Positions 1,368 to 12,753 of a DNA stretch of 63,906 nucleotides are shown piece by piece. The position numbers and the translations under genes were made by a program. Location of the stretch: contig JAHJGZ010000007.1 of assembly GCA_018823795.1 (NCBI GenBank), positions 1-63,906 of the forward strand, given 5' to 3'. Every line of letters begins with the position of its first letter. Positions within the stretch are counted from its first letter, which is position 1. Source of the stretch: Candidatus Omnitrophota bacterium. GTDB taxonomy: Bacteria > Omnitrophota > Omnitrophia > JAHJGZ01. Below the pieces are notes generated by a model, which was not told where the DNA came from, ran no database searches, and saw only the letters and a program-made list of their open reading frames with translations.

Positions 1368-2087
1368 TTAAAACATTTTAATAAGATTATCTTCAGCACT
1401 CAGTACATCGACATTATCAATTTTCGAAACTTTCCCGTCCTTCATAAAAAAAACCTGTTCGCCGTATTCCCGGATAAAGTTGAGATGATGTGAAATAATA
1501 AAAAGGGTGATCCCTTTTTCTTTATTCAATATCCGGAGCAGCTTAAAAAGTTCCCGCTGCTGTTTTATATCAAGATGGGATGACGGCTCATCAAGCAGTA
1601 AAATATCCGCCTCCTGAGCAAGAACGCGTGCTATTTCAACGCGCCGCCGCTCCCCGCCGCTTAAAGTCAGGACGGAACGGTCCCGGAACTTGAGTGTATC
1701 GGTCATCCGCATGGCTTCGTGCCCCTTCTCTTCGTCTTCCGGCGACTCAAACATCCCGAACGAGGCATGCGCATAACGGCCCATCAAAACAACCTCTTCA
1801 GCCGTGTATGGGTACAGGTATGACGTATCCTGCTCGATCACACCGATGCGGCGCGCGCGCTCACGGTTGGTAAGCACCGCAAGCGGTGTGCCATCGATCG
1901 TAACCGTACCGCACTGAGCTTTGAGAAGACCGCACATAACTTTAATGAGAGTTGTTTTTCCCGCGCCGTTGGGCCCCATAAGAAACGTAAATGCACCTTG
2001 CCTAAGGGTTACGCTGCAATCGGTGATGACCCGCGCTGTTTTATATGCAAAAGAAACGTTTTCAACGGTAATAGCATTACCAGTCAT
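1368..2087 (-). CDS. btuD: Cobalamin/iron-siderophore ABC transporter ATP-binding protein
   Basis: GPNGAGKTT, LSGGERRR and LLLDEP motifs. The ORF-track extension to 2132 runs through a hairpin repeat. Confidence 0.8.
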   Translation of the reverse strand: MTGNAITVENVSFAYKTARVITDCSVTLRQGAFTFLMGPNGAGKTTLIKVMCGLLKAQCGTVTIDGTPLAVLTNRERARRIGVIEQDTSYLYPYTAEEVVLMGRYAHASFGMFESPEDEEKGHEAMRMTDTLKFRDRSVLTLSGGERRRVEIARVLAQEADILLLDEPSSHLDIKQQRELFKLLRILNKEKGITLFIISHHLNFIREYGEQVFFMKDGKVSKIDNVDVLSAEDNLIKMF

Positions 2088-2088
2088 A

Positions 2089-2278
2089 TTTACTCCGTTG
2101 TGTGTATTGTATGACTCATCCCGATTAGACAATACTTTAACTGCTGTCTAACGGGATAAATTCCTGCCTGCCGGCAAGGCAGGCGCACAATAATTTATGT
2201 TTACAAACAGTATCCAGCGAAGCTGGATAAATTCGCACAGTAACTTATGTCGTGCTTTGCACTCCATAAGTTACGTGC
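2089..2278. repeat. Cluster of short palindromes between btuC and btuD
   Basis: ATCCCGATTAGACA..TGTCTAACGGGAT (2118-2157); CCTGCCTGCCGGCAAGGCAGG (2163-2183); TATCCAGCGAAGCTGGATA (2211-2229); GCACAGTAACTTATG..CATAAGTTACGTGC (2235-2278). Confidence 0.75.
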
Positions 2279-2282
2279 TCAT

Positions 2283-3341
2283 TTATACAATCCTTCGTGT
2301 TTCTTTTTTCTTTAAAAGAAAAATAAAAAACGGGGCGCCGATAAACGAGGTCACCACCCCGACCGGCAGTTCCTGCGGCATAAGGATCGTGCGCGCAATC
2401 GTATCGGCGATCACCAAAAACATCCCGCCCACAAGCGCGCTCGCCGGAAGGCTCAGCCGGTGGTCAGGCCCAAAGAGAAGCCGCACGATATGCGGCACGA
2501 CAAGCCCCACAAACCCAATCAGGCCACTCACCGCGACTGAGAGACCGGTAATAAAAGAAGCGCCGATAAAACAGATCGCTTTGGTCCGTTCGGTCGAGAC
2601 GCCTAACTGCCGCGCTTTTTCATCGCCGAGGGTAAGCAGGTTGATGTTACGGGTCTGGGAAAAGAGCACGGTGACACTCGCACACACCGCTACGGAGACG
2701 ACTACAATAAGCGTCCCGTTCACGTTCGAGAGGCTTCCGAGCAGCCAGAAAAAGATGCTCGTCAGCTGGTCATGGCTGACGATCGTTTCGATAAAAATGA
2801 CAATCGAAATAAAGAACGAGTTTAAAATCACCCCGACAAGAAGCAAGGAATAGACCGACAGTTCCCCCTTGCGTTTCGATAAAGCGTACACCAGTCCCAT
2901 CGCGCCGAGAGAACCTGCGAATGAAAAAAACGGGACGGTGATGATGTTCTGTAAAAAAATGGGGATGCCGCATGCCGTGGCAAGCACCGCGCCGAGCGCG
3001 CCGCCTGATGAAGTCCCGAGAATATGCGGATCGGCAAGCGAGTTCCTAAGCAGTGCCTGAAAGATACAGCCGCTGACCGCAAGAGCCATCCCGACTACGA
3101 ACGCAAGCATGATCCGTTTCAAGCGGATATCCCACACGATAAGGCTGATGCGTGCCTCGACGTGCGGCACGTCGGGCTGCGTCATCTTCTCGATGAGGCA
3201 GGAGACAATATCACGCGTCCCGATCTTAAGCACACCGCAATGCAGCGCGCCGAAGATGACCGCAAGTGAAAGGAACATAAGAATGCTCATGATCACTATG
3301 ACGCGGGCGGCCGTGAGCCTGGTTGTCGTCCCTTGTTCCAT
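2283..3341 (-). CDS. btuC: FecCD/BtuC family ABC permease
   Basis: RNSLADPHILG, A.QLGV, GLIGFVGLVVPHIVR and GAPFF motifs. Confidence 0.85.
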   Translation of the reverse strand: MEQGTTTRLTAARVIVIMSILMFLSLAVIFGALHCGVLKIGTRDIVSCLIEKMTQPDVPHVEARISLIVWDIRLKRIMLAFVVGMALAVSGCIFQALLRNSLADPHILGTSSGGALGAVLATACGIPIFLQNIITVPFFSFAGSLGAMGLVYALSKRKGELSVYSLLLVGVILNSFFISIVIFIETIVSHDQLTSIFFWLLGSLSNVNGTLIVVVSVAVCASVTVLFSQTRNINLLTLGDEKARQLGVSTERTKAICFIGASFITGLSVAVSGLIGFVGLVVPHIVRLLFGPDHRLSLPASALVGGMFLVIADTIARTILMPQELPVGVVTSFIGAPFFIFLLKKKETRRIV

Positions 3342-3342
3342 A

Positions 3343-4242
3343 TTACTCCGTAATTATCCGTTCACTGTATGTGGTTTCTTCGCCGAAGATCTCAGGATGC
3401 ACAATTTGCGCCATGATATCGAGCATGAGCGGCGTACGCGGCCCCGGCACCGAATGGATATCGGTCTTGATGATATAGACCTGTCCGTTCGCGACGGCGT
3501 CGATACTCTTCACCGAAGACCAAAAATCCCGGATGAGCCTGCGCTGCAAAAAATCGGGTGTCTCATAAAATGTCGCGTCGATAATGATCGCCGGATTGAG
3601 CCGTATGATCTCTTCAATATTGTACTGCGGGTAGCGCACCGCGCTTTCCACAATGCATTGTTTTCCGCCCGCGACCGTGATAAGGTCGTCTTCATAGGTT
3701 CCGCATCCTGCCACATAGAGCGGCTCGTGGGAGCGCACAAAGAGCACCAGCGGGCTCGCCGCCTCCTGCACGCGGGATGAGATACTTTTCATACGGCCGC
3801 GTACGGTATTTTCGAACGCAATTGCTTCCTGTTCTTTGCCCAGCATTTTCCCTATCACTTTATAGGCATCGATAAGTTCTTCAATCGTATAAAAACTAAC
3901 GACCGTATTCTTCACCCCGAGCCTGTCAAGCCGGGACTGGATCTGTTGCGTACCGCTATTGGGGGAAAGGATCACCATGTCTGGGGAAAGTGAGACGATC
4001 TTCTCAAGGTTCGGGTTAATAAAACCACCCACCTTTTCTTTCGTGAACGCAGCCGGCGGATAATCGCAGTAGTCACTCACACCGACAAGCACATCCTCGG
4101 CGCCGAGCGAATAAATGATCTCGGTAATAGCCGGAGCGAGCGAGACAACGCGCCGGACCGTATCATCGGCCCCGGCCACGCTAGTCATAGCAAAAAACGC
4201 TGCCGTTAGCACTAACGTAATTGTTCTTTTCATCATGTTCAT
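3343..4242 (-). CDS. btuF: Cobalamin-binding periplasmic protein
   Basis: Signal peptide; RVVSLAPAITE, VGVSDYCDYP and PGPR motifs; downstream of a B12 riboswitch. Confidence 0.85.
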   Translation of the reverse strand: MNMMKRTITLVLTAAFFAMTSVAGADDTVRRVVSLAPAITEIIYSLGAEDVLVGVSDYCDYPPAAFTKEKVGGFINPNLEKIVSLSPDMVILSPNSGTQQIQSRLDRLGVKNTVVSFYTIEELIDAYKVIGKMLGKEQEAIAFENTVRGRMKSISSRVQEAASPLVLFVRSHEPLYVAGCGTYEDDLITVAGGKQCIVESAVRYPQYNIEEIIRLNPAIIIDATFYETPDFLQRRLIRDFWSSVKSIDAVANGQVYIIKTDIHSVPGPRTPLMLDIMAQIVHPEIFGEETTYSERIITE

Positions 4243-4249
4243 CCTCGTT

Positions 4250-4294
4250 TCCCGCTTCGCGGGATAATTCCTGCCTGACGGTAGGCAGGGCAGG
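4250..4294. repeat. REP-like palindromes upstream of btuF
   Basis: TCCCGCTTCGCGGGA (4250-4264) then CCTGCCTGACGGTAGGCAGG; same families as at 192 and 2163. Confidence 0.7.
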
Positions 4295-4454
4295 CGGCCT
4301 TATAACTTACGCTCACTTCATCCATCAACACACTCTTCATTATCCCCCCCATGTTTCTTTCAGGTACGCTATCCCGATACAATACTTCGTATTGTACGGG
4401 ATTAATTCCGGCATATCAGTTATGTCGTTACACTTCATAACTGATGCCATCATT

Positions 4455-4498
4455 AAAAAAGAGCTCTTACTTCCACAATAAGGAAATAAGAGCTCTTT
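4455..4498 (-). terminator. Intrinsic terminator (B12 riboswitch expression platform)
   Basis: AAAGAGCTCTTATTTCC-loop-GGAAGTAAGAGCTCTTTTTT on the minus strand. Confidence 0.75.
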
Positions 4499-4571
4499 GA
4501 GTCGTTTGCATTGATTTAATCTTTCCTTTTTATCGAAGGCGTCCTTGACATTGAAAAAATGCCAAGTGTCT

Positions 4572-4825
4572 TTTGGGTCTCCTGACTTACGGATCATTTT
4601 ACTAATCGTACCTTCCCGGAATGAGCAAGTAAAAAGGAAAAAAGATAAAGGATAAAACAAATACAGCCTTTATTTGTTTTTCCTTTTACCTTTATCCTTT
4701 ATCCTTGTCTCCCCCAGTGGCCATTACGACGTTCATCCCCGTTCACAGTGGCGCAACCGCGTGGGATTTTCACCCAACTTCCCCGTATATCAAAAATCAT
4801 AAGTGGCGGAAATTATACCTCTTTT
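4572..4825 (-). ncRNA. Cobalamin (AdoCbl) riboswitch containing an ~90-nt heptamer-repeat hairpin insertion
   Basis: Minus strand has GGGAA-GTTGGGTGAAAATCCCAC-GCGGTTGCGCCACTGTG...GCCACTG...GGGAAGG...AGTCAGGAGACC; lies upstream of btuFCD. Ends are approximate. Confidence 0.85.
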
Positions 4826-4852
4826 GCCGCTTCGTGTACATCCTTTTTTATG

Positions 4853-6733
4853 CTACTGACTATGTCGAAACGCAGGCGGAAATAAAGAGTCTCCATGTTC
4901 TTCGTGTGCCCGCTCAAGCCGCTTTTTTTGTTCATCAAGTATGGTAAATAAAATATCAGGTACATTCTTCTTATGTTTTGTATAAAATTCTTTAATTCGC
5001 GCAATCTTCGCACAATTTTCCAAAACCCTTATAGAAAACTGCTTCAGATAATCCTCTTCTGTATATTCTTTATTGAGTACTTCCTTAAATAATCGTTTCA
5101 GATCTTCATATTCCGGAATAGATCCGGTAGGCAATTTAATCGCATCGACATCCCCATGGACACGCAGTTCCATCCATTTTATCCATACACGCTTGTCCTC
5201 CATAGCGGTTAAATAGTTCCCCTCTTTATCTTTCTGGAAGTAGTTGACGAGAAAGATACGCGGCGGTTTCTCAATCCCTTTAACAATCTGTAAATTGTTA
5301 TTAATATACGTTCCCAGATAAATTGAAAGAAAGTCAAGGTTCGACATCGGATTTATTTGCCGGACCCCTTCTTTTCCTAAGGTCGCCGCTGTTGTCTCCG
5401 ATTCCAGTGAAGCTCCCATGGTTATGATCCCATGCTCCCAGTTAAATGCTTCTTGTACGGGTGGTAAAATACTCGAATCTCTGCCGCCATAAATAATACC
5501 GCGTACGGGAACGCCGTGTGGATTATCTAATTCACTATCAGTATTGCTGAGATCATATAAACTAATGGTGTAGCGCGCATTTTTATGTGCAGAGGGAATC
5601 TCTTTCCCGTCAGCATCTTTTTTCCCCTTATGCCATTGTCCAGAAAAATTTATCCCCTTTTCAGGAGCCGGTCTTCCGTCACCTAACCAGCGGGGATGAT
5701 TATCATCACAGACCAATACATTAGAAAAAATAGCCTGTCCCGGCGTTGAAAGAACCTTCCAAATAACCGGATCATCCTTGTCGTTAACATCCTGAATAAT
5801 GCCGAAGATCCCACACTCAACATTGACTCCATGCAAGGCGTCCTTATATTTTCGTAAATAGGCTATATCGTCACCGATAATCGTTTCTCCGGGTAACATT
5901 GCTGTCGATGTTTTTCCGCACGCACTGGGAAAGGCACCACTAAAATAGGTTTTCCTGCCCTTTGGCCCATGTACTGCCATAAGAAACATGTGTTCAGCAA
6001 GCCATCCTTCACGAGATGCCTTCTGAATAGCCAGCCGCAGGGAAAGCTTCTTAAGACCAACGGTATTGCCGGCATATTGCGTATTTGTACTGTATACAAT
6101 ATCCTCTTCAATATCAATGTAGACTCTCCGCTTATCAACATTCTTACTCACACCATTTTCTAAATCGCCAGCACTGTGCACATAGCGGAAAAATGCTTCT
6201 GATGAGCCAATTTCTTTAAACTGTTCATACCCAGTTCGACAGAGTATGTATTCTGAATGCCCGACATAGCTTGAATCGGTAAGCTGAACACAGGGAATAG
6301 AAAACTCAGACCCCGTCGGGCCAAGACAAAAGAACAACACATACATCTCTTTTCCAACCATTATATCCTTGAGAATCGAACGAATTTCTTCTATTCCCGG
6401 CCCTTTTTCTATTGCATTTGGTACTGACGTTAAATCAGCTCCGTGTGGTAAAAGATACTTCGTTTGTGCTTTATCTCGCGCTTGATCCTGCGCCCCGTCA
6501 AAATGGATCGTATGCCCCTTAATGGCAAGACTTTTTTCTTCTCCATTCTTCAACGCTTGTTGTCGTATATAGGCCCTATCTTCCTTTGCATCTGTACCTA
6601 CATAGATTGAATTCGGGTTACATAATTCGGCATAGGATGCAACAAATTCATGTAGTTTCGTATTCCGAAGCGCCATAAGCTTCTCGTAGCTTGCCGGGTT
6701 GCATTTTTCTTTTAATAATTCGTTATTCGTCAT
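4853..6733 (-). CDS. pckG: Phosphoenolpyruvate carboxykinase (GTP)
   Basis: YAGNTVGLKK, WLAEHM, AFPSACGKT, GDDIAY and IIYGGR motifs. Confidence 0.95.
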   Translation of the reverse strand: MTNNELLKEKCNPASYEKLMALRNTKLHEFVASYAELCNPNSIYVGTDAKEDRAYIRQQALKNGEEKSLAIKGHTIHFDGAQDQARDKAQTKYLLPHGADLTSVPNAIEKGPGIEEIRSILKDIMVGKEMYVLFFCLGPTGSEFSIPCVQLTDSSYVGHSEYILCRTGYEQFKEIGSSEAFFRYVHSAGDLENGVSKNVDKRRVYIDIEEDIVYSTNTQYAGNTVGLKKLSLRLAIQKASREGWLAEHMFLMAVHGPKGRKTYFSGAFPSACGKTSTAMLPGETIIGDDIAYLRKYKDALHGVNVECGIFGIIQDVNDKDDPVIWKVLSTPGQAIFSNVLVCDDNHPRWLGDGRPAPEKGINFSGQWHKGKKDADGKEIPSAHKNARYTISLYDLSNTDSELDNPHGVPVRGIIYGGRDSSILPPVQEAFNWEHGIITMGASLESETTAATLGKEGVRQINPMSNLDFLSIYLGTYINNNLQIVKGIEKPPRIFLVNYFQKDKEGNYLTAMEDKRVWIKWMELRVHGDVDAIKLPTGSIPEYEDLKRLFKEVLNKEYTEEDYLKQFSIRVLENCAKIARIKEFYTKHKKNVPDILFTILDEQKKRLERAHEEHGDSLFPPAFRHSQ

Positions 6734-6832: not shown

Positions 6833-7465
6833 CTAAAATCCTTCCTCCTGTAACAATTGTGCCGTAAGAGAAGATTTCTCTCCTTTTAAATGTTGTTTAA
6901 CATACTTCGATAGAATATCGACTTCAATATTCACCCGATCATTAACTTTCAAAAGAGTGAATGAGGTGTTTTTAAAGGTATGAGGAATAATGACAACGGA
7001 AAAAGAATCGGAGCTCATCTCCTGGATAGTTACACTCACACCATCAACTGCCACCGACCCCTTCATCACCATGTTGTTTCGTATCGCAGGTGAAACACCG
7101 ATGTGTAAAAAAATATCCTTTTTATTCTTTACAATTCTTTTTATCTGTCCCATCCCATCAACATGCCCCTGAACCCAATGCCCGCCAAGCCGGTCACCAA
7201 TACGTAATGCTCGTTCTATGTTTACGAAAGCGCCTTTCTTGAGTAACCCTATAGTAGTCACCGCAAGCGTCGGTTGTGATGCATCAGCAAAAAACATATT
7301 TTTCTTAAAACCGGTAACCGTAAGGCATACACCGTTCACTGCAATACTTTCCCCTATTTGAAAGTCGTTCCACAGTGTATCAACAGCAATGCACACCTCA
7401 TGCATATCAGATTTTGTCTTTTTCGCCTTCAAGGTACCAACCTTTTCAATTATCCCCGTAAACAT
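6833..7465 (-). CDS. ribE: Riboflavin synthase (alpha)
   Basis: MFTGIIE start; SIAVNGVCLTV and GGHWVQGHVD motifs. Confidence 0.95.
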   Translation of the reverse strand: MFTGIIEKVGTLKAKKTKSDMHEVCIAVDTLWNDFQIGESIAVNGVCLTVTGFKKNMFFADASQPTLAVTTIGLLKKGAFVNIERALRIGDRLGGHWVQGHVDGMGQIKRIVKNKKDIFLHIGVSPAIRNNMVMKGSVAVDGVSVTIQEMSSDSFSVVIIPHTFKNTSFTLLKVNDRVNIEVDILSKYVKQHLKGEKSSLTAQLLQEEGF

Positions 7466-11055: not shown

Positions 11056-11072
11056 ACGACCTCCTTTGGTTT

Positions 11073-11107
11073 AAAAAGATAAAAGTTAAAAGATAAAAGT
11101 TAAAACA
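11073..11107. repeat. Heptamer array, downstream flank of four-helix-bundle gene
   Basis: AAAAGAT AAAAGTT AAAAGAT AAAAGTT AAAACAA. Confidence 0.8.
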
Positions 11108-11108
11108 A

Positions 11109-11489
11109 TTACACATCTTTACGAAAATGTACTTTCTTAGATATACTAGCAAAAATACTTTTTAACTCGAATGACTCTTGTAATAATCTTTCCAACTCTT
11201 TGCCTTCGGTGATCTCTACTGCCTCAATAATCCTTAACCAATAGTTGCTTTCCTTTGACTCCCGAAAACAAATACTAATCTTATATTTAAAATCATCTTT
11301 ACTAAAGGCTCCTTCTGCTTCCTCATAATTTGCCCCTATTGACGTAGCGGCTTTTGCGAGTTGATATCGAATAATATCATTTTCTTTTGATAGTCTTATT
11401 TTCTTTAAAAATCTTATTACCGCTACTGCAAAATCAAATGTTCTTTCCTTTAAATCCCTTCCTTTCGTACCGTTTTTTTGCCCTTTCAT
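11109..11489 (-). CDS. Four-helix-bundle protein (23S rRNA intervening-sequence protein family)
   Basis: DLKERTFDFA..QL..AATSIGANYEEA....SKDDF..K..I..RE..E..YWL pattern. Confidence 0.9.
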   Translation of the reverse strand: MKGQKNGTKGRDLKERTFDFAVAVIRFLKKIRLSKENDIIRYQLAKAATSIGANYEEAEGAFSKDDFKYKISICFRESKESNYWLRIIEAVEITEGKELERLLQESFELKSIFASISKKVHFRKDV

Positions 11490-11507
11490 CTCGTGTTCCT
11501 TGTATAT

Positions 11508-11563
11508 TTTTTATCCCTTGTCTTTTTTCTTTTTTTATCCTTCATCCTTTATCCCTTATCCTT
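11508..11563. repeat. Heptamer array, upstream flank of four-helix-bundle gene (inverted relative to 11073-11107)
   Basis: Minus strand AAGGATA AGGGATA AAGGATG AAGGATA...AAGGGATAAA, beginning at the ribBA stop codon. Confidence 0.8.
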
Positions 11564-12753
11564 TACAGTAAGTGTCCTAGTTTTTCTTTTTTTGTTTGTA
11601 AATATTTTCTATTATAAACTGTAGATTTTACGTGAAGCGGAATCCGTTCAACAACTTCCAGTCCAAATCCTCCAAGTCCGATAATTTTTCGGGGATTATT
11701 TGATAATAATCTGATCTTCTTGACCCCGAGTTCGACAAGAACTTGCGCTCCTATCCCGTAATCACGCAGATCCGGCTTAAATCCTAACCGTTCGTTTGCT
11801 TCAACGGTGTCCATCCCCTTATCCTGCAGTTCATACGCTTTAATCTTATTAATAAGCCCGATTCCTCGGCCTTCTTGACGAAGATACAGAACGATGCCGT
11901 TACCCTCACGATTGATCATATCCATGGCAGCATAGAGTTGTTCTTGGCAATCACAACGCAGGGAACTTAATACCTCACCCGTAAAACATTCAGAATGGAC
12001 CCTGACAAGCATAGGGTCTTGTGTAATGGTTCCTTTAATCAATGCAATATGTTCTTTAGTATCAATAAATGACTGAAATGCAATAATTTTCCATTCACCA
12101 AAACGTGTCGGAAGAATTGCTTCTGAAACACGCTCAACTAATTTATCAAACGTACGCCGGTATTCAATTAATCGGGCAATGGTACTTATTTTTAAGCCGT
12201 GTTTTTTTGCAAAAATGAGAAGATCATCCATCCGTGCCATTGATCCATCATCATTCATAATTTCACAAATCACCGCTGAAGGACGAAGCCCTGCAAGACG
12301 GGCTAAATCAACGCTTGCTTCTGTATGACCAGCACGGACAAGCACCCCCCCTTTTTTCGCTCGCAAAGGAAAAATATGTCCCGGCACCGTCAGATCCGAG
12401 GAACTATATTGAGGATTTGCCAAAATATCAACCGTGCGTGCACGGTCTGATGCAGAGATACCGGTGGTAATACCCGCTTTCGCATCAACTGAAACGGTAA
12501 AGGCAGTATTGAAACTATCCTCATTCCGTTCCACCATATCTTTCAATTCAAGCGCTTGAAGTCGTTCTTCTGTTACGGGCACACAAATAAGCCCGCGGCC
12601 GTATTTTGCCATAAAATTTATTTTTTCCTTATCCACATGCTGCGCGGCAAAAATAAGGTCCCCTTCGTTCTCCCGTGATTCATCGTCGGTAAGAATGACC
12701 ATCTTTCCTTGCTTGATATCTTCTAGTATTTCTTCTATTGAGTTCAATTCCAT
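11563..12753 (-). CDS. ribBA: Bifunctional DHBP synthase/GTP cyclohydrolase II
   Basis: [27 protein letters not shown] and QEGRGIG motifs. Start set at MELNSIEE. Confidence 0.96.

Follow-up and report, generated by a model that had tools for sequence, protein, structure and literature searches.

This locus raises the question of how a hairpin of tandem 7-nt units came to stand inside the aptamer of a cobalamin (B12) riboswitch, and whether the aptamer tolerates it. The window, meaning the whole stretch of 63,906 nucleotides that was analyzed, contains the riboswitch on its minus strand upstream of three transporter genes. The explanation preferred here, which as a whole is probably correct, is that a gene-less hairpin resembling the intervening sequences (IVSs) of rRNA is tolerated at an unconstrained helix tip of the B12 aptamer. 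The features of the leader and of the genes behind it are as follows.

4812 to 4840, minus strand: promoter-like site TGTACA-17 nt-TATAAT, directly upstream of the aptamer (consensus scan only, 10 of 12 matches)
4554 to 4815, minus strand: cobalamin riboswitch aptamer RF00174, full model 1-189 (cmscan 62.8 bits, E 3.6e-13)
4458 to 4498, minus strand: expression-platform hairpin that resembles a terminator, with a U run after it (inverted repeat, 17-nt arms, 94% complementary)
3343 to 4242, minus strand: gene for a BtuF-like periplasmic binding protein, the first under the riboswitch (PF01497, E 4e-31)
2283 to 3341, minus strand: FecCD-type permease gene (PF01032, E 2.7e-94)
1368 to 2132, minus strand: ABC ATPase gene of the same transporter as the FecCD permease (PF00005, E 3.8e-33)

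The aptamer score extends over the whole model, compares with a gathering score of 31.5 for RF00174 and was reproduced in the search of the genome (3.19 Mb in 250 contigs), where the match at 4554-4815 was the only one. In the cmscan alignment to the RF00174 consensus, the B12 box AGUCAGGAGACC, the sequence GGGGAAG (the GGGAA junction), the L4-type loop GGGUGAAAAUCCC, GCCACUG and CGGGAAGG are all aligned, and the core blocks GGGAA, the GGUGAAAAUCC loop, GCCACUG, GGGAAGG and the B12 box are in place across the full model. The first-pass annotation, a reading of the bare DNA that preceded this analysis, had held the aptamer core to be intact, and at the level of sequence this appears to be so, since the conserved motifs align over the full model. 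The terminator-like hairpin has 17 bp and starts 56 nt downstream of the aptamer; it escaped a simple terminator scan. The riboswitch is class-I-like, with a terminator-type expression platform, and stands ahead of a btuFCD-type B12 uptake operon. In class I cobalamin riboswitches, the P6 extension (P7-P11) is described as a peripheral element that folds back to shape the adenosyl pocket (PMC7367189). The hairpin is located in this extension and has the following parts.

4623 to 4711, minus strand: heptamer-armed hairpin at the apical loop of the GCCACUG/GGGAAGG helix (P6 extension), seen as a 90-base insert in the cmscan alignment and in the fold
4679 to 4706, minus strand: 5' arm of four units, AAGGATA AAGGATA AAGGTAA AAGGAAA (TRF period 7, 4.3 copies, 86% matches)
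4657 to 4678, minus strand: non-repeat inner stem-loop of 22 nt that caps the hairpin (fold)
4629 to 4656, minus strand: 3' arm of four units, TTTATCC TTTATCT TTTTTCC TTTTTAC (TRF period 7, 3.4 copies, 82% matches; inverted-repeat pairs)

A hairpin at 4623-4711, between GCCACTG and GGGAAGG, was the central claim of the first-pass annotation, and cmscan places an insert at 4622-4711: between GCCACUGGGG and UUCCGGGAAGG the window has 90 bases and the RF00174 model has 6. Posterior probabilities are high on either side of the insert, which is confined to one apical loop and pairs as a continuation of the helix, so that its description as an extension of a peripheral helix stands. The arms had also been called complementary. 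TRF gives them period-7 extents of 4633-4656 and 4677-4706, and the repeat search finds inverted arms of 32 nt that are 78% complementary, with a 16-nt core at 94%. RNAfold of 4610-4725 returns a single hairpin of -41.7 kcal/mol (z = -5.39; 0 of 200 shuffles as good), which stacks continuously on the native CUGGGG/UUCCGG stem. Its stem is about 34 bp long with few bulges, and its base is a non-repeat clamp of 7-8 bp, GAGACAAG / CUUGCUC. When folded in a context of 376 nt, the hairpin is kept in both the MFE and the centroid structure, and so is the terminator hairpin. The reading of the insert as a terminator within the aptamer is rejected, because it lacks a G+C-rich stem with a U run behind it. 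The 22-nt loop between the arms contains no ORF and no visible gene remnant, and inspection of the sequence found no target-site duplication at the hairpin, the flanks ...CTGGGG and ATTCCGGG... having no direct repeat.

The hairpin could be an artefact, namely a misassembly at a dispersed repeat, and the assembler does break at repeats of this kind, given that AAAGATA-type arrays stand at several contig ends of the assembly. The sequence itself speaks against this explanation. Contigs of two runs, although these are possibly the source of this DNA, cross 4200-5200 with 0 differences. A third study contributes a contig that matches 4620-4867 without a difference and crosses the 4711/4712 junction only, and a further contig covers 4612-4762, again with 0 differences. 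No RNA run was among those listed for 4200-5200. No joints or indels were found at the hairpin in the aligned contigs. In addition, both junctions fall inside one conserved riboswitch, the halves of which align to the orthologue described below. Misassembly is therefore very unlikely. The contig ends with AAAGATA-type arrays, of up to ~10 copies, are the start of C156, the end of C168, the end of C184, the end of C243 and the start of C6 in the genome of the window (G000).

The site as it appears with no hairpin is provided by G001, the only genome of the same family, and the orthologue in G001 was taken as the natural case without the hairpin. This orthologous switch (82.7 bits) has near-identical flanks, and a 15-nt loop, TCATTTATAAAGACT, replaces the hairpin. 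Comparison with orthologous leaders had been proposed in the first-pass annotation, and in this nearest relative the long helix is absent. An orthologue identical to that of G001 is located on a metagenome contig just downstream of a putative riboflavin synthase gene (its last residues read by eye), which fits the rib genes upstream in the window. Metagenomes scanned with a 29-mer from a conserved part of the aptamer yielded the G001-type orthologue only and no closer relative. A scan of named genomes with the BtuF protein gave best matches of <=45% identity over the best segment, in unrelated phyla, and yielded no useful orthologous leaders.

The usual length of the loop was surveyed in 49 riboswitches of the phylum. 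Of these, 35 had loci or regions from a search of 41 genomes, which lists 38 matches in 31 of the 41, and 14 were long matches from a sample of 151 genomes of the phylum, including all full-length matches of >=245 nt that had not been seen before (such matches number 16 in all, the window's own among them). Measured from CCAYU to GGGAAGG, the loop has a median of ~18 nt in the 49 riboswitches, with six rows corrected by hand and one row without the motif; thus the site is normally short, as the first-pass annotation had assumed. Loops longer than 60 nt were found in only 3 of the 49, those of the window (98 nt), G096 (110 nt) and G124 (74 nt), and loops of 10-44 nt occur in other relatives. 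The long loop of G124 (L089, G124:C22:48632-48891) is a 74-nt helix without period 7 at the same apical loop as the window hairpin. Thus, length alone is no mark of an insertion, and the loop tolerates extensions of other origin. A native long helix in the window is ruled out, because the G001 orthologue is without the hairpin and the unit is dispersed in the genome. We infer that the change was a gain here and not a loss elsewhere: in the ancestry of this genome, a gene-less hairpin of 89-90 nt would have taken the place of the short loop at the apex of the distal P6-extension hairpin. The score of the window riboswitch is 20 bits lower than that of its orthologue, and cmscan marks many of its P1/P2 pairs as non-canonical, a pattern that may be that of a decaying switch.

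The hairpin belongs, by its unit, to a family found throughout the genome. A pattern of three AAGGATA units with <=3 mismatches has 5 matches in the window, all at the hairpin or at the upstream flank of a PF05635 gene, and 0 expected in 100 shuffles. The unit common to the hairpin and the flank of the gene at 11109-11489, already pointed out in the first-pass annotation, is therefore real. Genome-wide, AAGGATA-type arrays occur at 16 loci, a lower bound because the assembly breaks at arrays, compared with 0-6 for six shuffled units. One of the 16 loci is at a PF05635 gene, at least 10 are gene-less hairpins between genes and several are at contig ends. The copy number of the arrays differs by locus, from 3 to ~10. 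The gene-bearing locus is composed as follows.

11534 to 11566, minus strand: upstream (5') arm of the cassette, AAGGATA AGGGATA AAGGATG AAGGATA (sequence, TRF, pattern matches)
11109 to 11489, minus strand: PF05635 gene (23S rRNA intervening-sequence protein, four-helix bundle), between ribBA and ribH (E 7.5e-15)
11072 to 11107, minus strand: downstream (3') arm of the cassette, TTTTAAC/TTTTATC units (sequence)

No other PF05635 gene of the genome has AAGGATA-type arrays at its flanks, and the cassette (11072-11566) takes up the junction between ribBA and ribH in the riboflavin operon. PF05635 genes number 13 in this genome; most are at stop/start junctions of host genes, and most have opposed heptamer arrays on their two sides, the unit being particular to each gene. 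The arms of the cassette in the window form a duplex of -31.5 kcal/mol in the sense direction and -18.5 in antisense, with 7 and 3 G-U pairs, respectively. In a rough, restricted duplex test, pairing of the arms was better in the coding sense in 11 of the 13 cassettes, with more G-U pairs. This bias fits a stem that would form at the RNA level, as in rRNA intervening sequences. The asymmetry is weak among the gene-less hairpins, of which 7 out of 10 are more stable when read in the same sense as the neighboring genes; the window hairpin folds somewhat better in the riboswitch sense (-31.2 kcal/mol) than in antisense (-25.4). One cassette, at C14:360-805, has a 13-copy TGAAATC array and lies on a short G+C-rich contig unlike the rest, which may be contamination of the bin.

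The members of the AAGGATA family have little in common beyond the unit. Comparison of the loops of eight AAGGATA hairpins revealed no relationship in 27 of the 28 pairs, and the remaining pair scored above all shuffles. The basal clamps differ among the hairpins, and no terminal motif common to the copies was seen. On sequence, then, the copies are defined by a 7-nt unit and not by a common element, unlike a copy-and-paste element, MITEs or REPs. MITEs, REP/BIME and Rickettsia palindromic elements are palindromic insertions tolerated in functional genes and RNAs; the copies of such a family follow one consensus over the entire element and frequently have terminal repeats along with target duplications. 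The window hairpin is like them in being a small hairpin insertion that survives where the host molecule tolerates it. However, the copies of its family have only the 7-nt unit in common and no duplication was seen, so that neither the whole-element consensus, nor the terminal inverted repeats, nor the target-site duplication of a MITE or transposon was found. By comparison with an IVS, two complementary arms of tandem 7-nt units that form one long stem are present (TRF, inverted repeat and fold), as are a seat at the helix tip of a structured RNA and absence from orthologues, and an S23p/PF05635 ORF in the loop is absent. The first-pass annotation had called the hairpin an empty element. It is gene-less, with no ORF in its loop, but its derivation from a gene cassette is no more than plausible, in that the loops are unrelated and there is neither a remnant nor a duplication. 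On the preferred explanation, the hairpin would be a member of a genome-wide heptamer-armed family whose sole gene-bearing member is the PF05635 cassette 6.5 kb away, and its architecture would be like that of ORF-bearing rRNA intervening sequences. Kinship with the PF05635 gene cassette is plausible.

The same observations bear on a different origin, in which the hairpin would have grown in situ and would not have been inserted whole. Slippage or gene conversion of the 7-nt unit would have acted on both strands of a pre-existing short stem, and the unit would be common through a repeat-generating or homogenizing process specific to this genome, not through descent from the PF05635 cassette. 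Several findings are in keeping with this. First, the family members have the unit in common but not their loops, clamps or ends. Secondly, the copy number of the arrays varies by locus from 3 to ~10, as the heptamer copy number of the Coxiella IVS is reported to vary between strains (PMC4990558). Third, the unit of the G096 riboswitch, discussed below, is dispersed in its genome without an accompanying PF05635 gene. Lastly, a strain in run X3 that is ~94% identical over 4458-4604 diverges on the 3' side of the hairpin loop, where the 29 bases seen before the contig end are of different sequence and contain one AAAGGAT-like word. Against growth in place, the loop of G001 contains no AAGGATA-like seed, the non-repeat clamp and the inner stem-loop are not made by slippage alone, and a further mechanism would be required for two complementary arms to grow in balance. 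Taken together, growth in place is a fairly unlikely account of the hairpin.

Hairpins of period 7 were also found in cobalamin riboswitches of other genomes. The second riboswitch of G096, which is of another genus and another family of the same class, has a 99-base insert at the window's loop with period-7 arms of the AAAAGUC type. The unit of this hairpin has 27 matches in its own genome, compared with 0 for a reversed control. None of the 9 PF05635 genes found in G096 carries the unit and none of the 27 matches is near them, which also argues against the hairpin being an empty derivative of a cassette. The riboswitch of G033 has TTTGGAA/AAATCCC period-7 arrays at two variable sites other than the window's loop, and its unit is that of one of the four PF05635 cassettes in G033. 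In G037, period-7 hairpins are present at the P4 tip and at a variable site near model position 151, and a 31-nt palindrome is at the window's loop; comparison of the PF05635 units of G037 with the riboswitch unit gave no clear match. Thus, the link between riboswitch unit and PF05635 cassette holds in two of the four genomes, and a dispersed family of the riboswitch's own unit was found in both genomes tested, G000 and G096. The same loop of the B12 aptamer was struck independently in two families of one class, by different units. The G037 riboswitch (368 nt with three inserts) was found with the laxer filters used for the 41 genomes and lost with the stricter filters used for the 151, so insert-bearing riboswitches are under-counted. 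This is a practical warning that strict search filters miss such riboswitches.

If the preferred explanation is right, the hairpin would prolong a helix that points outward and its folding would bring the two halves of the aptamer together at once. The sensor core and the terminator decision should stay unaffected, and the insertion would persist because helix tips are among the few harmless sites in a structured RNA. We infer that the hairpin is neutral for B12 sensing; this neutrality is an assumption, because minor alterations of peripheral elements are reported to be able to shift ligand selectivity (PMC7367189).

It is also conceivable that the hairpin is kept for a role in the mRNA leader. 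RNase III might enter at it, separating the aptamer from the mRNA and thereby determining how stable the btuFCD message is; alternatively, the PF05635 protein might bind the hairpin by recognizing its own heptamer there, which would couple B12 uptake to that protein. The stem of ~34 bp is long enough for RNase III, the gene for which (rnc) is encoded in the genome, and IVS stems of like design are described as RNase III substrates (PMC4990558); cleavage of the stem by RNase III is possible. The unit of the hairpin also flanks the PF05635 gene within the 64-kb window, heptamer hairpins recur in B12 riboswitches of four genomes, and the hairpin sequence is identical in contigs from three studies. 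Nevertheless, recurrence at helix tips is equally predicted by the survivorship of neutral insertions, the nearest orthologue serves the same operon without the hairpin, and the units differ between genomes. A role of this kind is quite improbable.

There is also a broader proposal. Riboswitch aptamers, like rRNA, would be natural hosts of IVS-type heptamer hairpins. RNase III would cut after the regulatory decision, so that the btuFCD message would start in a "split" aptamer held by the remaining stem, and the PF05635 pentamer encoded 6.5 kb away would recognize AAGGAUA arrays, as RNA or DNA, and make, maintain or use all 16, the hairpin's among them. We regard this proposal as unlikely. If it were true, the B12 leader would serve as an inbuilt reporter of what the PF05635/S23p family does.

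Several known systems resemble the hairpin in part. In the 23S rRNA of Coxiella burnetii, an IVS in helix 45 is described with an S23p ORF, tandem heptameric repeats that vary by strain and a stem cut by RNase III (PMC4990558). The window hairpin is like such an IVS, as described there, in its stem of complementary ends with tandem heptamers, its position at the helix tip of a structured RNA and its absence from relatives. It also recalls ORF-bearing IVSs in that this genome has PF05635 genes which are mostly bracketed by heptamers, one of them with the hairpin's unit. Unlike an IVS, its host is an mRNA leader (a riboswitch aptamer) and not rRNA, its loop has no ORF and its arms are almost wholly repeat units. 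The P6b stem-loop of the Nostoc tRNA-Leu(UAA) group I intron is reported to consist of two complementary 7-nt repeat motifs, one class of which has been replaced by another several times (PMC4476775). It is likewise a peripheral, length-variable stem-loop of 7-nt repeats in a functional RNA, replaced independently while the core is kept, but it belongs to a cyanobacterial ribozyme intron and has other units, and the hairpin belongs to a riboswitch in another phylum. The account of the P6b repeats in PMC4476775 draws no link to a PF05635 gene. In Geobacter genomes, dispersed heptanucleotide families with four to five copies are described as having no known role (PMC2700814). Lastly, as in the natural variation of the P6 extension (PMC7367189), the site in the window is peripheral and length-variable, whereas the long forms in the window and G096 differ from native variation in being period-7 hairpins of genome-wide families.

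Published examples of heptamer-armed stem-loops come from rRNA intervening sequences and from a single group I intron of cyanobacteria, and a riboswitch is a new host for them: a full-text literature search, in which subscription journals were not covered, found no repeat hairpin described within a riboswitch aptamer. The locus is of interest for several reasons. First, it offers a clean natural test of how much additional helix is tolerated at the tip of the P6 extension of a class I cobalamin aptamer. Secondly, it extends the host range of IVS-like hairpins from stable RNAs to a regulatory mRNA leader, where cutting by RNase III would have a measurable consequence. Third, being short and convenient to assay, it could serve as a substrate for experiments on how PF05635 four-helix-bundle proteins use their heptamers.

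Other structured RNAs and repeats were noted in the course of the analysis. The rRNA genes are not assembled in this genome, and its RNase P RNA is of normal length. A second abundant heptamer family, TTCTGTC / GACAGAA, is present in G000 (C162:2393-2595 and 7261-7296, C157:9406-9441, C59:12782-12816 and C214:12903-12935), and no matching unit was found at any of the 13 PF05635 genes. The GACAGAA unit resembles the GACAGAT repeats given for the Coxiella IVS (PMC4990558). A second riboswitch in G001 (L031, G001:C85:1767-2073) has a long hairpin near model position 151 that ends in ccccgttagaaat / atttctaacgggg, and hairpins with this end motif are also dispersed in G000 (C73:3773, C130:18935 and C178:10765). 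In G025, a cobalamin riboswitch of 328 nt (L027, G025:C100:11572-11899) contains a tandemly duplicated two-hairpin module of ~60 nt in its aptamer, which is not of period 7. Lastly, two short hairpin modules between the terminator and the btuF start codon of the window (4371-4402 and 4410-4447, minus strand) belong to a dispersed repeat family other than AAGGATA, and the depth of contigs from other loci climbs at these modules (37 vs 13). The B12 leader thus houses two unrelated repeat families.
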